A stretch of 32,000 nucleotides of DNA, from the NCBI GenBank assembly GCA_034530875.2, contig JAVRCJ020000003.1, positions 72,246 through 104,245 of the forward strand, read 5' to 3'. Position numbers and translations under genes: made by a program. This document shows, one piece after another, positions 4,161-20,341 of the stretch. The notes under the pieces were generated by a model. That model searched no databases. It saw nothing but the letters and a program-made list of their open reading frames with translations, and was not told the DNA's origin. The stretch's first letter is position 1; every line of letters begins with the position of its first letter. Origin of the DNA: Nostoc sp. DedSLP01. GTDB taxonomy: Bacteria; Cyanobacteriota; Cyanobacteriia; Cyanobacteriales; Nostocaceae.

Positions 4161-4381
4161 AAAATGATATTGAATTCAATGGAGGCAGCGTTAATAAAGT
4201 TATTAAATTGACAAAGCTCATTGCCAAATTATGAGAATAATTTTTAATCTAAAATTTAAAATTAGTACGGTCAATTAATAAAATTTATTGAAAGCTGTAT
4301 CAAAAGTTAGAGTAATTATTCTGTTAAAGAATTAAAATCTAGATTTTGGGATTAATTCCAGAAGATTGCAGAGGAGTTGCA

Positions 4382-4403
4382 GGGGCACGACATTGTTGTG
4401 CCC
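4382..4403. repeat. GGGGCAC..GTGCCC hairpin repeat
   Basis: The sequence is ggggcacgacattgttgtgccc. It belongs to the same class as the hairpin at 31402-31427 (aggggcgcacatttgtgcgcccct). Confidence 0.5.
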
Positions 4404-4541: not shown

Positions 4542-5384
4542 ATGATACGGCGTTTATTTGGGCAAAAGCGAACAAAGGTAAATAAAGTATTTACCATAGC
4601 TATTTTTACTACATTGACGGCAATTAGTAGCGTGTCTTGCAGTAAGAATGATAATGTATTAATTACCGAAGTCGGAGTTAGTCCACCTAGCCGTCGTTCA
4701 GCTATCAGAACCAAAGCTGAAGCATTCTACGTTCAGGGAAAAAATCAGCATATCAACGGCGATTTGCAAGCCGCGATCGCTTCGTATACTCAAGCAATAG
4801 AGCAGAATTCTCAATATGTCGCTGCTTACAACAGTCGGGGATTAGCCTATTTTGATTTGGGAGATAAACAAAAAGCGATCGCAGATTACAATGAAGCGCT
4901 GCGTATCAATCCCAACAACGCCGAAGCATATAATAACCGGGGAAATGCCCGCGCCTCCCAAGGAAATAACCGAGAAGCTGTTAAAGATTATAGTGAAGCG
5001 ATTCGCCTAAATCCCAACTACGCCGAAGCCTATAATAATCGAGGAAATGCCCGCGCCTCATTAGGAGAAAAAAACAGGGGGATAGATGATTTTGACCAAG
5101 CCATCGCCCTCAGACCGAGATATGCCATCGCCTACAATAACCGCGGAAATGCCCGTGCTGCCAATGGAGATCCGCAAGGAGCGATCGCAGATTACAATGA
5201 AGCCATTCGCCTCAATCCTAACTTTGCCCCTGCCTACAATAACCGCGGAAATGCCCGCGCCAAGAATGGAGATAAAGAAGGCGCACTTAAGGACTTGGAA
5301 CAAGCAGCCAACATCTTTCAAACTCAAGGTAACAACGATCTATATCAGCAAGTGACAAAAAATATCAAAGAACTTGCACAGTAG
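4542..5384 (+). CDS. TPR-repeat lipoprotein
   Basis: A signal/lipobox ..LTAISSVSC is followed by about six 34-aa TPR units with the recurring AEAYNNRGNARA...A..DY..AI.LNPN signature. Confidence 0.85.
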   Translation: MIRRLFGQKRTKVNKVFTIAIFTTLTAISSVSCSKNDNVLITEVGVSPPSRRSAIRTKAEAFYVQGKNQHINGDLQAAIASYTQAIEQNSQYVAAYNSRGLAYFDLGDKQKAIADYNEALRINPNNAEAYNNRGNARASQGNNREAVKDYSEAIRLNPNYAEAYNNRGNARASLGEKNRGIDDFDQAIALRPRYAIAYNNRGNARAANGDPQGAIADYNEAIRLNPNFAPAYNNRGNARAKNGDKEGALKDLEQAANIFQTQGNNDLYQQVTKNIKELAQ

Positions 5385-5492
5385 AGGGAATGGGGACTGG
5401 GAGATGGGGAAGTGTGGGGAGTGTGGGGAGTGTGGGGGGAAAGATTTCTTCCCCATCCTCCTACACCTGCCACACTTCCTATGCCCCATGCC
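5385..5492. repeat. G-rich/C-rich palindromic dispersed element (copy A), including a GTGTGGGGA x3 nonamer run
   Basis: Its reverse complement aligns with 25678-25799. The shared core is GGAGGATGGGGAAGAAATCTTTCCCCCCACAC, flanked by ATGGGGCAT. It fills the gap between the convergent TPR and actP genes. Confidence 0.8.
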
Positions 5493-5502
5493 TTATTCTC
5501 AA

Positions 5503-7077
5503 TTACATTTCAGAGCCAATGTGGATGCGATCCTCAACTTCTGCAAATTTTTCCTGTGCCTGTCGTTCGGTACCCAATAACGAAACAACGATCGCCACGA
5601 TAAATGCTAGAGGAATCGTAACTAATCCAGGATTTTTCAGCGGGAAGGGCGCCCAAGGGTTTTTGAGAATTGTTACCTGAATAGTAGGTGACAAATAAAT
5701 CAGTAGTAAGGAGGAGAAAGTACCTACTAGCGTACTTGCAACTGCCCCGTTAGTGGTAAAGCGTCGCCAAAGCATTGACAGAAGCAATGCTGGGAAGTTG
5801 GCACTAGCAGCGATCGCAAATGCTAAACCTACCATATAAGCCACGTTTTGCCCTTTAAACAAGATGCCCAGGAGTATGGCTACTAACCCGAGAAGCATTG
5901 TCGCACCACGAGCCACCTTCAGCTGTTCTGACTCGTCAGCATGACCCGAACGCACCACATTCACCCACAAATCGTGAGAAAGTGCAGCTGCACCTGAGAG
6001 TGTTAATCCAGCAACAACCGCCAAAATCGTTGCAAAGGAAACGGCAGCAATAAAGCCTAAGAAAGCATCGCCACCAAGAAATTCTGCCAACATCGGTGCA
6101 GCCATATTACCACCAGTACCGATTTGCTTGATGGCATCTTGGCCTACTAGCACCATTGCCCCAAAGCCCAGGATGAAAGTCAGAAGGTAAAAAGCTCCAA
6201 TAATGGCTGTGGCGTAGGTAACAGAAATCCGGGCGGCTTTAGCGTCGGGTACTGTGTAGAAACGCATTAGGATGTGGGGTAATCCAGCTGTGCCGAACAT
6301 CAACGACATGCCTAAGGAAATAGCATCAAAGGGGTCAGAAACTTGTTTGCCTGGAGCTAATACACCTGTATATTTCTCAGCCGCAGCGGCAAAAAGAGCC
6401 ATTGGGTTAAAGCCAAATCGCGCGAGTACCAAAATAGCTAGCAAGATAGTTCCGCCAAGCAAGAGAACTGCTTTGATAATTTGTACCCAAGTGGTGGCAA
6501 TCATCCCCCCAAAAATCACATAAGCCATCATTACGCAACCGACAATGACCACGGCTAATTCATAATCAAAGCCAAACAGCAGTTTGATTAGCTCCCCAGC
6601 ACCTACCATCTGGGCAATTAAGTAGAAGGTGATTACTGCCAAGGTTCCAATTGCAGATGCTATGCGTACAGGTTTTTGTCGCAAGCGAAAAGCTACTACA
6701 TCAGCAAAGGTGTATTTACCCAAGTTACGTAGCGGTTCTGCAATCAAAAACATGACAATCGGCCAGCCCACCAAGAAGCCGATAGAATAAATTAAGCCGT
6801 CAAAGCCGTTGAGTGCTACCAGCCCAGCGATACCTAAAAAGCTGGCTGCACTCATGAAGTCTCCCGCTAGGGCTAACCCATTTTGAAAACCACTGATTTT
6901 ACCGTCAGCTGTATAAAAGTGTGAGGTGCTTTTAGTGAGCTTTGCCGCCCAATAAGTGATGCCTAAAGAACTTACAACAAAAAGAAAAAAGAAAGCGATC
7001 GCCAACGGATTAAAGTGGCCAAGTCTAGAAATATCCGTTACTGCTAAAGGCAAATCGCACCAAAACACAATATTCAT
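5503..7077 (-). CDS. actP: Cation/acetate symporter (sodium:solute symporter family)
   Basis: The 524-aa polytopic protein contains ..[44 protein letters not shown].., typical of ActP. It is preceded by a DUF485 gene, as in yjcH-actP operons. Confidence 0.9.
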
Positions 7078-7132
7078 GCTTAATTGGGTTTGATATCTTA
7101 GATTTTGGACTAGAAATTGCTAATAACTAAAT

Positions 7133-7408
7133 TCACTTGCGTGTGAGTCTTGCGATTTGGTTATCGTAACTGCTATTTGCCCAACGCACGTAGATAAAAA
7201 TTAATACCCATGCCGAGACAATTACCAGCGCCCCTAGTAAAATTCCCAAACTCAGACCTGGAACTACTAACGATCCCAATAGGGGCTTATTGAAGGCAAT
7301 TAACAGGATAAAACCAAAGTAAATAAACATCATGGCTCCACTCAAAATCAGGGATACCCGCCAACGTTCAGCCGCGAGAGCCTGGAGAGCCTTTGTGCGA
7401 TCGTTCAT
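7133..7408 (-). CDS. yjcH: DUF485 (YjcH-like) small inner-membrane protein
   Basis: The product is 91 aa with two TM helices and a ..WRVSLILS..MFIYFGFILLIAF.. pattern. It lies 55 nt upstream of actP on the same strand. Confidence 0.8.
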   Translation of the reverse strand: MNDRTKALQALAAERWRVSLILSGAMMFIYFGFILLIAFNKPLLGSLVVPGLSLGILLGALVIVSAWVLIFIYVRWANSSYDNQIARLTRK

Positions 7409-15769: not shown

Positions 15770-16159
15770 ATGAGAAATAAACTATTGTTTGGCGCCATAT
15801 TTATGGCAACTTGGGTAGGAACATTAATCCCGAGTGCTTTTGCGGCTTCACCTTGTTCTGTGGGACAAAAAGCAGAGGTTTTTTGGAAAGATACATGGTA
15901 TGCAGCAACAGTCTTAGAAGTGAATGACGATCGCTGCTATATTACCTACGATGGTTATGATAGTTCTTGGGATGAATGGGTTGATTCTTCACGCTTTCGG
16001 GTATCTTTTGAAGTTGGAGACGCAGTACAAATTCTCTGGAAAGGTAAATGGTATGCAGGGAAAATTTTAGATGTGAGTGACAATCTTTATAAAATTACTT
16101 ATGACGGTTATGATAGCTCTTGGGATGAGTGGGTTGAACCTGCACGAGTAAGTAGATAG
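15770..16159 (+). CDS. Secreted protein with two tandem Tudor/Agenet/SH3-like barrel repeats
   Basis: The signal peptide ..LIPSAFAA is followed by two ~50-aa repeats: G.KAEVFWKDTWYAATVLEVNDDRCYITYDGYDSSWDEWVDSSRFR and GDAVQILWKGKWYAGKILDVSDNLYKITYDGYDSSWDEWVEPARV. Confidence 0.7.
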   Translation: MRNKLLFGAIFMATWVGTLIPSAFAASPCSVGQKAEVFWKDTWYAATVLEVNDDRCYITYDGYDSSWDEWVDSSRFRVSFEVGDAVQILWKGKWYAGKILDVSDNLYKITYDGYDSSWDEWVEPARVSR

Positions 16160-16184: not shown

Positions 16185-16228
16185 AAGGGACGATTTCATT
16201 TGTAGAAGTCGTCCCTTCAATTTTTTTA
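16185..16228 (+). terminator. Intrinsic terminator
   Basis: The stem AAGGGACG (16185-16192) pairs with CGTCCCTT (16210-16217), followed by T7 at 16221-16227. Confidence 0.75.
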
Positions 16229-16307
16229 TAATTTTTTCTATTATTACTTGTTTAGAGGCTGGTAGACTGAGAACCATAAATAAAATTCCGTATATTTTGG
16301 CGAATTT

Positions 16308-16685
16308 ATGGAGCCAGTATCACTAACAGCAGGTGCGATCGCAACCTTGGTCATCATCAAAGCTTTTGAAAAAACTGGTGAAATCATCGGCGAAAAGGCT
16401 TGGCAGGAAGGTGAAAAGTTATTTTTACTCCTAAAGCGCAAACAACCCAATACGGCAAGTGCCATTGAACAGGCTCAAACACAACCTTTAAATTATGGTC
16501 AGGCTTATCTGATTGGACAGCAAGTAGAGGAAGCAGCAAAGAAAGATCCTGAAATTGCTCAAGCGGTGGCAGCTGTAGCCAATGAGGCACAACCTCAACT
16601 GACGAACACTATTATTGAAAATTGGCAGGGGATAAACATTAAAGGTGGAACTAATACTATTTCTGGCAATACCTTTAACTTCTGA
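16308..16685 (+). CDS. 125-aa helical N-terminal module ending in a Gly/Asn-rich motif; a free protein or the N-terminus of the downstream STAND NTPase
   Basis: The ATG is at 16308. The product starts MEPVSLTAGAIATLVIIKAFEKTGE.. and ends ..ENWQGINIKGGTNTISGNTFNF, then TGA at 16683-16685. It is in the same frame as the ORF at 16746..18458. Confidence 0.6.
   Translation: MEPVSLTAGAIATLVIIKAFEKTGEIIGEKAWQEGEKLFLLLKRKQPNTASAIEQAQTQPLNYGQAYLIGQQVEEAAKKDPEIAQAVAAVANEAQPQLTNTIIENWQGINIKGGTNTISGNTFNF
16683..16685 (+). other. In-frame UGA, followed by C, separating the N-module from the NB-ARC ORF
   Basis: The sequence ttc TGA c ta cag was read directly. The 20 codons to 16745 are open in the same frame (LQSPEQERVKSNPSTEIPQN). 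Confidence 0.9.
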
Positions 16686-16745
16686 CTACAGTCGCCCGAA
16701 CAGGAACGGGTAAAGTCAAATCCTTCTACTGAAATACCGCAAAAT

Positions 16746-18458
16746 TTGCCCCTGAGTGGGGTGGTGGAATTTATCGGACGCGAAGAAGAATTGCAAAATC
16801 TCCACCAACTTTTGCAGGATAATAAACAAGTAGCTATAGCCGCTATTGCGGGGATGGGTGGAGTTGGTAAAACAGAACTCGCCTTGCAATATGCCATCCA
16901 GCAACGCGAGACTTACAAAGGTGGGCTTTGCTGGTTGTTACCGAAAATTGGGGATGTGGGCATTCAAGTTGTGCAGTTTGCCAGAACGCAGCTTGACTTA
17001 AACCCGCCAAAAGATTTTGATTTACTCGCTCAAGTGCAATACTGCTGGCGGCGTTGGCGTGGTGGTGAGGTGCTGCTAGTGTTGGATGATGTCAGCGACT
17101 ACGAGGAAGTTAAGCCTTACTTCCAGTCGCTACCTTCTCGGTTTAAAGTGTTGATGACTACGCGCCAGAAGTTGGGACGCATCGCACAGTTATCTTTGGA
17201 TGTGCTGCAACCAGAGGCGGCGCTGGAGTTATTAAGGTCTTTACTCAAGGAAACACCAGAGCGAATTGAGCGAGAATTAGCTTTAGCAAATCAGTTGTGT
17301 GAGTGGCTGGGATATTTGCCTTTGGGTGTGGAATTAGTGGGGCGCTATCTGGCGCGGAAACAGGATTTATCTCTAGCAGAAATGTTGCGACGGTTGCAGA
17401 ACAAGCGATTAGATGAGCGTTCCCTGTCTAAATCTAAGTCGGAAGCCGACATGACAGCACAACGAGGTGTGTTAGCAGCCTTTGAGTTGAGTTGGCAAGA
17501 ATTAGAAGACGACGATAAGCAATTGGGTTGTTTATTGAGTTTATTTGCTGCTGCACCCATACCTTGGAAGTTGGTGGAACAGTGTTTACCAGATGAAGAT
17601 GCTGAAGATTTAGAAAAAATTAGAGATGATAGTCTGCTGACTTTGCATTTACTCCAGCGCAAAAGTAAGGGAGTTTACCAACTGCATCCACTGTTGCGGG
17701 AGTTTTTCCAATATAAGCTTACAGGTTTAGAACAGGCAGAGGAATTTAAGCGATCGCTTTGTCGAGTAATGGTAACAGTTGCTAAGAAGATTCCTCAAGA
17801 CCCCACCCTTGAGCAAATTAAAGATTTCACCCTGGCAATACCTCATTTAGCAGAAGTAGCTAACAATCTTATTCAATATGTGAGTGATGATGATTTAATT
17901 TGGGCATTCGTTGGTAATGCTCGATTTTACAATGGTCAGGGATTGTATGACAAAGCAGCACCTTGGTTGAAGCAGTGTCTAGAAGTTATCAAAAAACGCT
18001 TGGGAGAAGAACATCCATCTGTCGCCACTAGCCTCAACAACCTAGCAGAACTCTACCGTTCCCAAGGCAGATACAGCGAAGCCGAACCCCTTTACATCCA
18101 AGCTTTGGCACTTAAGCGCAAGCTGCTGGGAGAAGAACATCCAGATGTTGCACTTAGCCTCAACAACCTAGCAGCACTCTACGACTCCCAAGGCAGATAT
18201 AGCGAAGCCGAACCCCTTTACATCCAAGCTTTGGCACTTAGGCGCAAGCTGCTGGGAGAAGAACATCCAGATGTTGCACTTAGCCTCAACAACCTAGCAG
18301 CACTCTACTACTCCCAAGGCAGATACAGCGAAGCTGAACCCCTTTACATCCAGGCGTTAGATATTTTTGAGCAACGGTTAGGTGCAAATCATCCTAATAC
18401 TATTACTGTGCGTCAAAATTTAGCATATTTGCGCGATCGCCTCTCCTCAGAACAGTAA
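16746..18458 (+). CDS. NB-ARC (STAND) NTPase with C-terminal TPR repeats (NLR-like); the start is uncertain and it may be the 3' part of a 716-codon gene beginning at 16308
   Basis: Readable motifs are Walker A GMGGVGKTELA, Walker B LLVLDDV, MTTRQK, a GLPL-like motif GYLPLGVELVG, and then kinesin-light-chain-type 42-aa TPRs (LNNLAxLYxSQGRYSEAEPLY). The only candidate starts are TTG 16746 and GTGs, with no SD. The first ATG lies inside the P-loop. Confidence 0.8.
   Translation: MPLSGVVEFIGREEELQNLHQLLQDNKQVAIAAIAGMGGVGKTELALQYAIQQRETYKGGLCWLLPKIGDVGIQVVQFARTQLDLNPPKDFDLLAQVQYCWRRWRGGEVLLVLDDVSDYEEVKPYFQSLPSRFKVLMTTRQKLGRIAQLSLDVLQPEAALELLRSLLKETPERIERELALANQLCEWLGYLPLGVELVGRYLARKQDLSLAEMLRRLQNKRLDERSLSKSKSEADMTAQRGVLAAFELSWQELEDDDKQLGCLLSLFAAAPIPWKLVEQCLPDEDAEDLEKIRDDSLLTLHLLQRKSKGVYQLHPLLREFFQYKLTGLEQAEEFKRSLCRVMVTVAKKIPQDPTLEQIKDFTLAIPHLAEVANNLIQYVSDDDLIWAFVGNARFYNGQGLYDKAAPWLKQCLEVIKKRLGEEHPSVATSLNNLAELYRSQGRYSEAEPLYIQALALKRKLLGEEHPDVALSLNNLAALYDSQGRYSEAEPLYIQALALRRKLLGEEHPDVALSLNNLAALYYSQGRYSEAEPLYIQALDIFEQRLGANHPNTITVRQNLAYLRDRLSSEQ
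18000..18377 (+). repeat. Three tandem 126-bp (42-codon) TPR-encoding repeats with very high nucleotide identity
   Basis: The units start at 18000, 18126 and 18252. Units 2 and 3 share a ~57-nt identical run and differ at only 3 positions over the first ~103 nt. Confidence 0.9.
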
Positions 18459-18486
18459 AATTTAAGTTCTCAACTTCATCAATCAA

Positions 18487-18717
18487 GGTTTTTTCTCCAA
18501 CGTTCGTGTTTTGAACTCAAAGTTTCCTGTTCCAAACGAGAACGTTCCCGTTTCAAGTGAGAATGTTCTTGTTCTAAACGAGAACATTCCTGTTTCAAGT
18601 GAGAATTTTCTTGTTCTAAACGAGAACGTTCCTGTTTCAAGTAAGAATGTTCTTGTTTCAAACGAGAACGTTTCTGTTTCAAGTGACAACGTTTCAGTTT
18701 CGAGCTAGTCGTTTCGC
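18487..18717. repeat. 21-nt periodic tandem array, about 11 units, consensus GTTTCAARYGAGAAYGTTCYT
   Basis: The units begin at 18487, 18508, 18529 ... 18697. Each unit carries a GAAC(G/A)TTC-type palindromic core, and neighbouring units are also inverted repeats of each other (AGAATGTTCT..AGAACATTCT). There are no unique spacers. Confidence 0.85.
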
Positions 18718-18748
18718 GTTCTGACGTGGAATGATGGTGTTGTAAAGG

Positions 18749-18875
18749 CGATCGCTCTACTTTAAAGTGTAAATCAACTGGCGATGTCTCTGACGGGCTA
18801 CGCCTACGCTTTGATGTGATTATGAATAATGGAAAGCGTAGACGCATAGCGGCTTGTCGTCAGACATCGCTTTTC
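18749..18875. repeat. Small dispersed repeat cluster to the left of the PIN cassette
   Basis: CTCTACTTTAAAGTGTAAATCAACTGGCGAT (18755-18785) recurs at 19580-19610 (29/31). GCGATGTCTCTGACGGGCTACGCCTACGC (18781-18809) is the inverted copy of 19649-19677 (27/29). A partner arm lies at 18836-18870. Confidence 0.8.
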
Positions 18876-18903: not shown

Positions 18904-19344
18904 ATGACCAGGGTTTATCTAGATACCAGTATTTATAATCGTCCGTTCGATGACCAAACACAGCCAAAAATATTTCTAGAAACACAAGCTATTATCATAA
19001 TTTTACAAATGGTGGAGGCCAGATTAATAGAATTAGTTAGTTCTTCAGTTCTAGAATATGAAAATAGTCGTAACCCTTTTGTGGTAAATCAGCAATCGAT
19101 GGAGCGATATTTACAAATAGCTGTCTTGAAAGTATTAGTAGATGAAAATATTAGAGGTAGAGCAGAAGAACTAGAGCAACAAGGAATTAAACCTATCGAT
19201 GCACTTCATGTAGCGTGTGCAGAAGCTTCCCAAAGTAATTATTTTATTACTTGCGATCGCAGATTAATCAACCGCTGCCAAGATTTATCACTTTTGGTAA
19301 TCAACCCAACTAATTTTATTCTAGAGGTAGACAATGGAAATTAA
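18904..19344 (+). CDS. PIN-domain protein (VapC-like toxin candidate)
   Basis: MTRVYLDTSIYNRPFDD.. supplies the first acidic residue, and ..IKPIDALHVACAEASQSNYFITCDRRL.. supplies the conserved distal acidic residues. The product is 146 aa. Confidence 0.75.
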   Translation: MTRVYLDTSIYNRPFDDQTQPKIFLETQAIIIILQMVEARLIELVSSSVLEYENSRNPFVVNQQSMERYLQIAVLKVLVDENIRGRAEELEQQGIKPIDALHVACAEASQSNYFITCDRRLINRCQDLSLLVINPTNFILEVDNGN

Positions 19345-19558
19345 AGTGATTAACGAACAAGAAAATTTACAAGAAGTTATGCAGGTTTTACTCACTCATT
19401 TAGAACCATCGAAGGTAATGAAATTTTGGGCTGCTTGTAAACTTAGTGAAGGCGACTATTTGCAAGTTAAAGAAAAACTATTTGCTCAAGAAACAGTTAG
19501 CAGCTTATATGCCAAAATCAAAGAATATCAAGATGATAGTAAACGCGAAGTCTCTTGA
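19334..19558 (+). CDS. 74-aa partner protein (antitoxin candidate), translationally coupled to the PIN gene
   Basis: Its ATG at 19334 overlaps the PIN stop (19342-19344) by 11 nt. It is small, acidic and helical, and I recognise no family. Confidence 0.5.
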   Translation: MEIKVINEQENLQEVMQVLLTHLEPSKVMKFWAACKLSEGDYLQVKEKLFAQETVSSLYAKIKEYQDDSKREVS

Positions 19559-19762: not shown

Positions 19763-20341
19763 ATGATAGCCTCCCCCAAACAAAACTACCTTACCCCTGA
19801 AGAATACCTCCAACTGGAGGAACAAAATTCTGTTAAACATGAATACATCAACGGCTACATCTATGCAATGGCTGGCGCACTCGATCCACACGTTACCATT
19901 GCTGGAAACCTGTTTGCTCTCCTCCGCGATCGTGTGCGCGGTTCTGGTTGTCGTGTGTACATCGCCGATATGAAAGCCCGAATTGAATCTCTAAATCGCT
20001 TTTATTATCCCGATGTCATGGTTACTTGCGACTCACGAGACCAAGAAACACCAGCGTATAAAAGATTTCCTTGTTTAATTGTCGAAGTTTTATCCAATTC
20101 TACCGAAGCCTTTGACCGAGGCGACAAGTTCGCTGATTATCAAGCACTGGAAAGTCTGCAAGAGTATGTTTTAATTAATACAAAACGTCAGCGAGTTGAG
20201 TGTTTTCGCCGCAACGATGAGGGATTGTGGGTTTTGCAATCTTACACAGCAGAAGATAAATCATTTCGGCTCAACAGTATCGATTTTCAAGAAACAATGA
20301 CAGCACTCTACGAAGATGTGGTTTTTGAACGATCGCAATGA
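19763..20341 (+). CDS. Uma2-family (DUF820) PD-(D/E)xK endonuclease
   Basis: The features ..LTPEEYLQLEE....HEYINGYIYAMAG.., ..YYPDVMVTCD.. and ..PCLIVEVLSNST...D...K...Y are the hallmark pattern of the Uma2 family, which is abundant in cyanobacteria. Confidence 0.85.
   Translation: MIASPKQNYLTPEEYLQLEEQNSVKHEYINGYIYAMAGALDPHVTIAGNLFALLRDRVRGSGCRVYIADMKARIESLNRFYYPDVMVTCDSRDQETPAYKRFPCLIVEVLSNSTEAFDRGDKFADYQALESLQEYVLINTKRQRVECFRRNDEGLWVLQSYTAEDKSFRLNSIDFQETMTALYEDVVFERSQ

Follow-up and report, generated by a model that had tools for sequence, protein, structure and literature searches.

In a 32,000-nt stretch of the genome of Nostoc sp. DedSLP01 (GenBank assembly GCA_034530875.2, contig JAVRCJ020000003.1, positions 72,246 to 104,245 of the forward strand; hereafter the window, numbered from its first letter), a small Bell-type protein ending in the amyloid signaling motif BASS7 is followed in the same reading frame by an NLR with NB-ARC and TPR domains, with a single UGA at 16683-16685 between them. 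Our comparative analysis suggests, with a probability of about 0.6, that Bell-BASS7 and the NLR belong to a single unit of translation, divided by a UGA that is programmed to leak. The evidence comes from the conservation of the stop codon and of the reading frame behind it, from the lack of a conserved start for the NLR, and from a putative RNA structure directly downstream of the stop.

Bell-BASS7 and NLR sequences in one reading frame

The upstream open reading frame (ORF) begins with ATG, spans 16308..16685, and encodes 125 amino acids (aa); it ends with TGA at 16683-16685, followed by a C at 16686. The next 20 codons, LQSPEQERVKSNPSTEIPQN, contain no stop and share the frame of the 125-aa ORF, and the frame continues via LPLSGVVEFIGREEEL to the P-loop GMGGVGKT (16851-16874) and stays open until the stop at 18456-18458. 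The TGA is the only interruption between the Bell ORF and the NB-ARC/TPR ORF, and a putative fusion would comprise 125 + 1 + 590 = 716 aa. A preliminary description of this DNA had read these features correctly, and it was also right that no ATG lies ahead of the P-loop (none precedes the P-loop Met) and that no purine-rich Shine-Dalgarno sequence is visible upstream of TTG 16746. Of the start candidates that it listed, this TTG stood, and the GTG codons had to be moved to 16761 and 16764 from 16758 and 16761, position 16758 being GGG. The features of the locus, all on the forward strand, are as follows.

16308 to 16610, forward: Bell-type helical domain (aa 1-101), predicted from the MEPVS start and hydrophobic first helix, an AlphaFold2 (AF2) model, and homologues
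16611 to 16682, forward: BASS7 amyloid signaling motif IIENWQGINIKGGTNTISGNTFNF (aa 102-125), matching published BASS7; sole copy in the locus
16683 to 16686, forward: UGA stop and 3' C, next codon CUA; candidate readthrough site
16684 to 16717, forward: outer helix 16684-16687/16714-16717, predicted by RNAalifold, enclosing stem 1 and pairing the GA of the stop codon
16686 to 16769, forward: linker of 28 codons, stop-free, with no start before TTG 16746; contains the conserved EIPQNLP
16694 to 16711, forward: stem 1 hairpin GCCCG/CGGGU with the 8-nt loop AACAGGAA, 8 nt after the UGA, predicted from covariation and RNAalifold
16702 to 16724, forward: possible pseudoknot stem 2, loop AGGA 16702-16705 with UCCU 16721-16724, from covariation; tentative
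16746 to 16748, forward: TTG taken as the NLR start by gene callers; not conserved
16782 to 17456, forward: NB-ARC NTPase domain (PF00931; P-loop 16851-16874; pN/pS 0.22)
17847 to 18458, forward: TPR sensor repeats (TPR_12/TPR_10, Pfam) and the stop at 18456-18458

The N-module begins with MEPVSLTAGAIATLVII, and residues M1, E2, and P3 are nearly invariant in the homologue alignment, which shows a conserved N-terminal part starting at MEPVS and then a variable tail rich in G, N, and Q. Published Bell domains have a MEPIS-type N terminus, a helical bundle of ~100 aa, and a C-terminal motif (Dyrka et al.; Ibarlosa et al.), and the "MEPIS" N terminus is a feature of Bell, Hell, Bab, and Avast2 proteins (bioRxiv 10.1101/2024.11.07.622273). 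Likewise, the AF2 model of the 125-aa protein predicts an all-alpha N-terminal domain of ~100 aa, with five helices at residues 6-20, 29-45, 47-55, 63-79, and 81-105 (predicted local distance difference test score, pLDDT, 62.8; predicted template modeling score, pTM, 0.62), of which the first is the hydrophobic MEPIS-type helix, here with MEPVS. The BASS7 region is disordered in the model. The tail IENWQGINIKGGTNTISGNTFNF is identical at ~20 of 23 residues to the published Bell-side BASS7 motif NENWQGINIKGGTNTINNNTFNF (AKG20974.1, Dyrka Table S2), and in the same table Bell-side BASS7 motifs are paired with NLR-side copies such as ENWHGINIKGGKNEIKGNTFIF. From its sequence, the N-module appears to be a Bell-type domain followed by a BASS7 motif, which gives a name to what the preliminary description had rightly called effector-like. 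An assignment of the motif to BASS3 (RHIM-like) was considered and is wrong, as the published table places it in BASS7; amyloid experiments have been published for BASS1 and BASS3 only. Pfam, NCBIfam, and PADLOC returned nothing meaningful for the N-module. Because the AF2 model is only moderate and a Foldseek search with it against the PDB gave no match below E 0.7, the Bell assignment has no structural confirmation.

A protein search gave 217 close homologues of the N-module, 117-163 aa long, and an exhaustive HMMER search over 1.84 billion representatives gave 221 matches; across both searches the proteins are essentially all stand-alone, at 56-245 aa. Since the close-homologue search yields only query-length proteins, fused forms were judged from the tblastn loci described below and from the HMMER search, in which no fused Bell-NLR protein occurs among the best 150 of the 221 matches. 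The identical 125-aa protein is present in the lichen-associated Nostoc assemblies ChiSLP02 and DedSLP05, and the identical product was called on six independent contigs from different assemblies and read sets.

The downstream ORF, read from 16686, matches NB-ARC (PF00931, E 4.7e-16) at residues 33-257 as well as TPR_12 (E 2.8e-68) and TPR_10 in Pfam. With an intact P-loop in its NB-ARC domain followed by repeat sensor domains, it has the layout of an NLR-like STAND NTPase, and the NB-ARC/TPR identity first proposed from the letters alone is borne out. Among strains with the identical 125-aa Bell protein, NLR lengths of 528, 570, and 708 aa were found (window 16746-18458; L201 3439-5025; L202 3439-5563). 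The difference appears to lie in the number of TPR repeats, which suggests rapid gain and loss of repeats in the sensor. An exact look-up of the NLR with three start variants gave no match because the TPR number differs between strains.

Conservation of the in-frame arrangement across related loci

The comparative set comprised 80 related genomic loci found by tblastn (L001-L080). In 59 of these, the order is Bell, TGA, a linker that is open and in frame, and then an intact ORF of 103-1053 codons. They come from Nostoc, Aulosira, Calothrix, Tolypothrix, Komarekiella, Dendronalium, Amazonocrinis, Aerosakkonema, Floridaenema, Coleofasciculus, and Waterburya, and the class crosses both genera and orders (Nostocales and others). 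Three further loci fit the pattern, two with an extra stop in Bell (L016 and L019) and one at a contig end (L064). Classical pairs account for 13 of the 80 loci. In these, the NLR begins at an ATG of its own, which in many cases overlaps the Bell stop, and the motif found at the Bell C terminus recurs at the NLR N terminus; Bell ends in TAA, TAG, or TGA, with the NLR in frame 0, 1, or 2. That leaves five loci, which are disrupted or decayed, are remnants, or run into a contig end. No sense codon was found at the TGA position among the 80 loci. The preliminary description had proposed asking of orthologues whether codon 126 is a sense codon or a conserved TGA, and the answer is a TGA conserved in 59 loci. 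So regular an in-frame UGA arrangement is far beyond what would be expected by chance.

Comparing the two classes, it becomes clear that they also differ in their motifs: within ±4 kb there is one copy in the in-frame loci and two in the classical BASS7 loci. A paired NLR-side BASS7 is absent from the window and from every in-frame locus, and it is present in L066, L072, L073, L075, L076, and L078. Motif types in the in-frame class include BASS7, NYGGNVGN, and others (L068-L077, L131, and L136); the NYGGNVGN type is seen in this class only and is not in the published paired-BASS table. A second Bell C-terminal motif type, NTVDKNYGGNVGNVSNDNRNQTFNF (L039-L057 and L064; about 4325-4390 per locus), is confined to the in-frame UGA class and missing from that table; it may be of the amyloid type and always be without a counterpart on the NLR side.

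The in-frame partner is an NB-ARC protein in 54 loci. The rest are an nSTAND1-WD40 protein (L068, 4415-6811), the junction of which lacks the hairpin; a transmembrane (TM) and PsbP-like protein (L071, 4433-5155); a TM protein without a Pfam match (L031 and L033, 4373-5131); and a CHASE2 protein (L080, 3840-5207), where the junction reads UGA-G and then GTG, possibly an ordinary start. In a metagenome scan with TTYTGACTAMAGYCGCC, ~115 of 120 loci were chance matches, the real ones being L131, L136, L170, L186, and L192 only. Two loci of the comparative set show what is left after decay. In L067 (4397-4600), Bell terminates with TAA, 6 nt are gone from the hairpin region, the RVKSNPPQNIP linker has shifted to the +1 frame, and no NB-ARC follows. 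In L079 (4433-4460), a remnant junction TTC TGA CTA GAG TC runs into stops after six codons, with no NLR; 336 nt further on, another Bell-like segment (AILIFTRYFEKTGENIG) shares its frame with an 823-codon ORF that has no early start codon (4769-7237).

The stop codon is of a single type. It is TGA in 59 of 59 in-frame loci, followed by C in 57, and is never replaced by a sense codon or another stop, as expected of a readthrough site in a weak termination context. In 218 long ORFs (at least 300 codons) from 81 sources, namely the window and L001-L080, TGA makes up 15.6% of stops and TAA 55.5%, and TGA-C is the rarest stop tetranucleotide at 1.4%, a scarcity that would fit ordinary genes avoiding a weak terminator. 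Immediately ahead of the stop, the codon differs between loci (TTC, TTT, ATT, TTA, or GGC). Ribosomal hopping from the Phe codon was considered and rejected because of this variation and because the linker peptide is conserved.

The linkers of the in-frame loci are 24, 25, 26, or 28 codons long, and therefore every indel is a multiple of three; the linker is stop-free in all of these loci, and both other sense frames are always closed. The first canonical start after the TGA in the window is TTG 16746. This TTG, at the leucine of NLP in the window and in 37 of 56 loci, gives way to TTA, CTC, CTT, ATT, or ATA in at least 15 loci. In L035, L043, L054, L070, and L074, no canonical start occurs until after FVGR, and in L077 the first one is the P-loop Met itself. 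Moreover, the TTG is a leucine codon within the peptide [IT]PxN[LIV]P, which is preceded by no start in 50 of 51 loci, and the annotated start would cut the conserved EIPQNLP of the linker. Classical NLRs translate [IT]PxN[LIV]P together with a preceding SERAKLNPP-type segment, downstream of their ATG and motif; the classical NLR of L066 translates the homologous peptide SQSERAKLNPPKHLP. The comparison thus supports the view of the preliminary description that the NLR has no credible start, the TTG being unconserved and inside a conserved peptide. The NLR is under purifying selection, with a ratio of nonsynonymous to synonymous differences (pN/pS) of 0.22 in NB-ARC; beyond codon 20 of the linker the ratio is 0.28 and then 0.22. 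Taken together, the shared open frame, indels in multiples of three, unconserved start, conserved peptide upstream of it, and constrained NB-ARC domain are the marks of an extended ORF.

The 36 nt after the stop (CTA CAG TCG CCC GAA CGG GAA CGG GTA AAG TCA AAT; codons +1 to +12) have a synonymous identity of ~1.0 and an amino acid identity of just 0.4-0.9. Synonymous divergence (pS) is 0.09 in these codons versus 0.42 in NB-ARC. Synonymous-site conservation serves as an indicator of 3' readthrough signals in viral recoding studies (PMC3159437). The conserved segment is predicted to fold. Stem 1 (16694-16698/16707-16711; -7.4 kcal/mol) is 99.1% paired over 48 sequences, with CG>UA exchanges at two pairs and one CG>GC flip. 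The outer helix has 96.5% of its cells paired, with G-C/G-U alternation only. The tentative stem 2 is 97.3% paired in the same 48 sequences, with pair types GC34/GU7/AU3/CG1 and GC42/GU4/AU1, and is weak alone (-1.3 to -3.8 kcal/mol). The observed covariation was reached by 0 of 500 shuffles, sliding the partners by one to three columns lowered pairing to below 48%, and RNAalifold independently recovered stem 1 and the outer helix. In the minimum free energy fold of 16683-16730 (-10.1 kcal/mol), the UGA itself is paired in the outer helix (UGACU/AGUCA; window 16683-16718). A single-sequence fold of 16671-16760 is no better than shuffles (z 0.17), and it is the comparison between loci that argues for the structure. 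A covariance model run over 640 kb matched at Bell stops only, with 46 matches at E<1e-9, and Rfam gave no matching family for 16200-17000, families of the selenocysteine (Sec) insertion sequence (SECIS) included. In the classical locus L066, the downstream half of the element sequence is kept and the 5' arm of the hairpin is missing. An antisense ORF (16595..16897, reverse strand) was considered as the source of the synonymous constraint and rejected, since only 31 of 62 loci keep it open and the G-U pairs are compatible with the sense RNA alone. Synonymous conservation and RNA structure are together what a 3' stimulator of readthrough would show, the pseudoknot stem being tentative, and the 8-nt spacing from stop to hairpin is that of viral readthrough and frameshift stimulators.

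Proposed readthrough and alternative explanations

In the mechanism that we propose, the pair would be transcribed as one mRNA, and most ribosomes would stop at UGA 16683 and release the free 125-aa Bell-BASS7, a latent pore-forming domain with an unfolded amyloid-prone tail. A minority of ribosomes would decode the UGA by a near-cognate tRNA (Trp, Cys, or Arg), helped by the weak UGA-C context, the CUA codon, and the hairpin or pseudoknot 8 nt downstream. The resulting 716-aa Bell-BASS7-linker-NB-ARC-TPR protein would be the sole route by which the NLR gains a start codon and an amyloid motif. When triggered, the TPR sensor would cause oligomerization through NB-ARC and so cluster the tethered BASS7 segments, at which the amyloid fold would nucleate and then be imposed on the abundant free Bell-BASS7; the templated Bell domain would then attack the membrane, leading to regulated cell death or abortive infection. 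Readthrough, how efficient it is, the templating of amyloid, the formation of pores, and what acts as the trigger are all inferred here, and we draw nucleation, templating, and membrane permeabilization from tested Bell/NLR, HET-S/NWD2, and Bab/Agp systems. It is also somewhat probable, at slightly better than even odds, that a whole class of cyanobacterial Bell/NLR immune modules uses programmed UGA readthrough stimulated by UGA-CUA and a small hairpin or pseudoknot, so that one ORF yields both a free tagged pore-former and a scarce NLR with the identical tag. The components are of known kinds, and their combination as a conserved class on bacterial chromosomes appears to be undescribed; full-text searches gave no relevant report of readthrough with Bell, NLR, Nostoc, or cyanobacteria.

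Several observations weigh against readthrough. Codons +1 to +12 have a pN/pS of 1.6 and thus show no constraint at the protein level; their coding signature is masked by the RNA constraint. In codons 13-20 the ratio is 0.60 in frame 0 versus ~1 in the other frames, a weak signal. Gene callers start the NLR at TTG 16746, the window itself offers this TTG and GTG 16761/16764, and cyanobacterial genes often have no Shine-Dalgarno sequence. In one clade, comprising 14 in-frame loci with linkers of 25 codons, the hairpin is missing and a TTG is always present, so that the NLR could be initiated internally in these loci. At 5 and 4 bp, the stems are short for an element that stimulates recoding, and the pseudoknot stem was derived from the very sequences used to score it; we know of no such RNA stimulator established for bacterial readthrough. 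Finally, the loci are related and many are paralogues, so that locus counts are counts of non-independent events.

One alternative, which we consider unlikely, is that the locus holds two ordinary cistrons. The NLR would then initiate at TTG 16746, at GTG 16761/16764, or at other codons elsewhere; the in-frame UGA would be a relic inherited from the origin of the pair, the RNA would regulate downstream initiation, coupling, or mRNA stability instead of decoding, and the NLR would activate Bell-BASS7 without a motif of its own. The frequent TTG at the NLP leucine and its use by gene callers, the hairpin-less clade that retains it, and the unconstrained first 12 codons all agree with such internal initiation, and base pairing of the stop codon within the outer helix would suit a role in coupling or occlusion. 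However, the start is conserved in neither position nor identity, with none before the P-loop in L077, and the TTG sits inside a conserved peptide that is otherwise translated. Two separate cistrons would have no need to keep the frame, indels in multiples of three, or a stop-free linker. Moreover, internal initiation leaves unexplained why the stop is always TGA-C and why the in-frame loci are exactly those without an NLR-side motif and ATG. The preliminary description had named four readings of the stop and chosen none. Its split effector/sensor pair fits the classical pairs, which have their own ATG and motif, and this locus has neither; readthrough is the reading best supported here, on comparative grounds, and the pseudogene and sequencing error that it also named did not stand, as discussed below.

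Recoding of the UGA, as Sec or by a dedicated suppressor tRNA, with the hairpin being SECIS-like, is very improbable. The bacterial Sec layout does consist of an in-frame UGA and, a few nucleotides behind it, a hairpin, and here the hairpin is conserved. On the other hand, the Rfam search that included SECIS families gave no match, the loop AACRGGAA lacks the G/U features that we take to mark bacterial SECIS elements, the UGA falls in a disordered linker that has no redox role, and 14 loci have no hairpin at all. In the selenium surveys consulted, cyanobacteria appear only among holders of selD without the Sec-decoding trait or with an orphan SelD. A lone in-frame stop without a downstream ATG also resembles a fresh nonsense mutation, and some copies have in fact decayed (L016 and L019, which bear extra stops; L067; and the remnant in L079). 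Yet a pseudogene, in which a once-fused Bell-NLR was killed by the stop and its downstream part is decaying, is hardly credible with the stop kept in 59 loci over several orders and the downstream ORF open over 240-1053 codons and under purifying selection; nor is there a fused, ancestor-like form with a sense codon in the 80 loci or among the best 150 of the 221 HMMER matches. A sequencing or assembly error at 16683-16685 is an a priori possibility in sequence derived from a metagenome-assembled genome and nothing more, and its likelihood is negligible given the identical 125-aa product on six independent contigs and the TGA shared by 59 loci.

Genomic setting, known systems, and implications

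Signals that would fit a single transcript surround the pair, and the sequence scan found no promoter-like or intrinsic terminator-like site between the two ORFs.

16185 to 16217, forward: terminator-like hairpin, 13 bp and T-run, closing the upstream gene; putative 5' boundary of the unit
16267 to 16296, forward: sigma-70-like site, by consensus match only; the sole forward-strand site upstream of the pair

The gene upstream (15770-16159) encodes a 129-aa protein with a signal-peptide-like N terminus, weak Tudor-knot/Agenet matches, and two internal repeats, W(K/Y)DTWYAATVLEV and WKGKWYAGKILDV. Directly after the NLR, on the reverse strand, lies a 122-aa ORF (18479-18847) of repeated ERSRLEQE(H/N)SHLKQE-like units, for which no Pfam match was recorded. 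It is followed at 18904-19558 by a PIN-domain gene (146 aa) overlapping a 74-aa ORF, a toxin-antitoxin-like arrangement, and, after this pair, by a Uma2-family endonuclease gene (19763-20341). The NLR is thus flanked by genes of predicted defense or mobile type.

Dyrka et al. (2020, bioRxiv 10.1101/2020.01.06.895854) defined the BASS families from paired motifs in genes that are collinear and often overlapping; stop codons and readthrough are not mentioned there. The locus described here resembles their Bell/BASS-NLR pairs of the BASS7 family in having a small Bell protein with a C-terminal BASS7 and a collinear NB-ARC/TPR NLR in a filamentous cyanobacterium. In the published BASS7 pairs, there is a second motif on the NLR side, and the NLR is initiated at a start of its own that often overlaps the end of Bell by a few nucleotides, whereas here the NLR has neither a motif nor a conserved start and is joined via UGA-C and a putatively structured RNA. 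Such in-frame loci are undetectable by a paired-motif screen. Similarly, in fungal HET-S/NWD2 and E. coli Bab/Agp (bioRxiv 10.1101/2024.11.07.622273), an amyloid nucleus on the NLR side templates a membrane effector of the HeLo or Bell type. The MEPVS sequence here is akin to the MEPIS-type N-terminal helix of Bab and Avast2, and the putative readthrough product would be akin to an "all-in-one" NLR. However, HET-S/NWD2, Bab/Agp, Avast2, and the all-in-one NLRs are encoded by two genes or by one uninterrupted gene, with no reported dual output by a leaky stop.

Phage Qbeta A1 is an example of programmed readthrough. The present locus resembles the alphavirus nsP3/nsP4 junction, with its leaky UGA-C, synonymous conservation, and a 3' RNA structure a few nucleotides downstream (PMC3159437). 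As in viral readthrough in general, including the retroviral gag-pol stop with its pseudoknot (PMC2194720), a short and an extended product would share their N terminus at a fixed ratio. Unlike viral readthrough, the present case concerns a bacterial chromosomal gene family, RF2 rather than eRF1, and very short stems, and it is drawn from sequence comparison. The prfB gene of E. coli, which encodes RF2, has the site CUU UGA C, where a +1 frameshift is stimulated by an upstream Shine-Dalgarno-like element. Both cases would exploit the poor UGA-C termination context in a bacterium; unlike in prfB, the two ORFs here are in the same frame and no upstream Shine-Dalgarno-like element is visible. The pairing of the stop codon might possibly matter, for example for ribosome pausing or release-factor access.

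To our knowledge, programmed readthrough in bacteria is barely documented outside selenocysteine and a few phages. If our reading is correct, these loci would be a case of family-wide, RNA-stimulated stop-codon readthrough in bacterial chromosomal genes, and a conserved, structured example in immune-type genes would add something new to what is known of translation in bacteria. Such readthrough would also define a third NLR architecture, between "two-gene" and "all-in-one", and would explain both the "orphan" Bell proteins, which have amyloid motifs but no partner motif on the NLR side, and the NLR genes annotated with arbitrary, unconserved starts. In current annotation, at least 59 loci are cut in two at a stop that probably serves to leak. 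For the biology of the family, a single motif copy would guarantee that nucleator and effector match, and the leak rate would set the sensor-to-effector ratio, which suggests a simple means to fix both stoichiometry and motif matching in amyloid-based death signaling.

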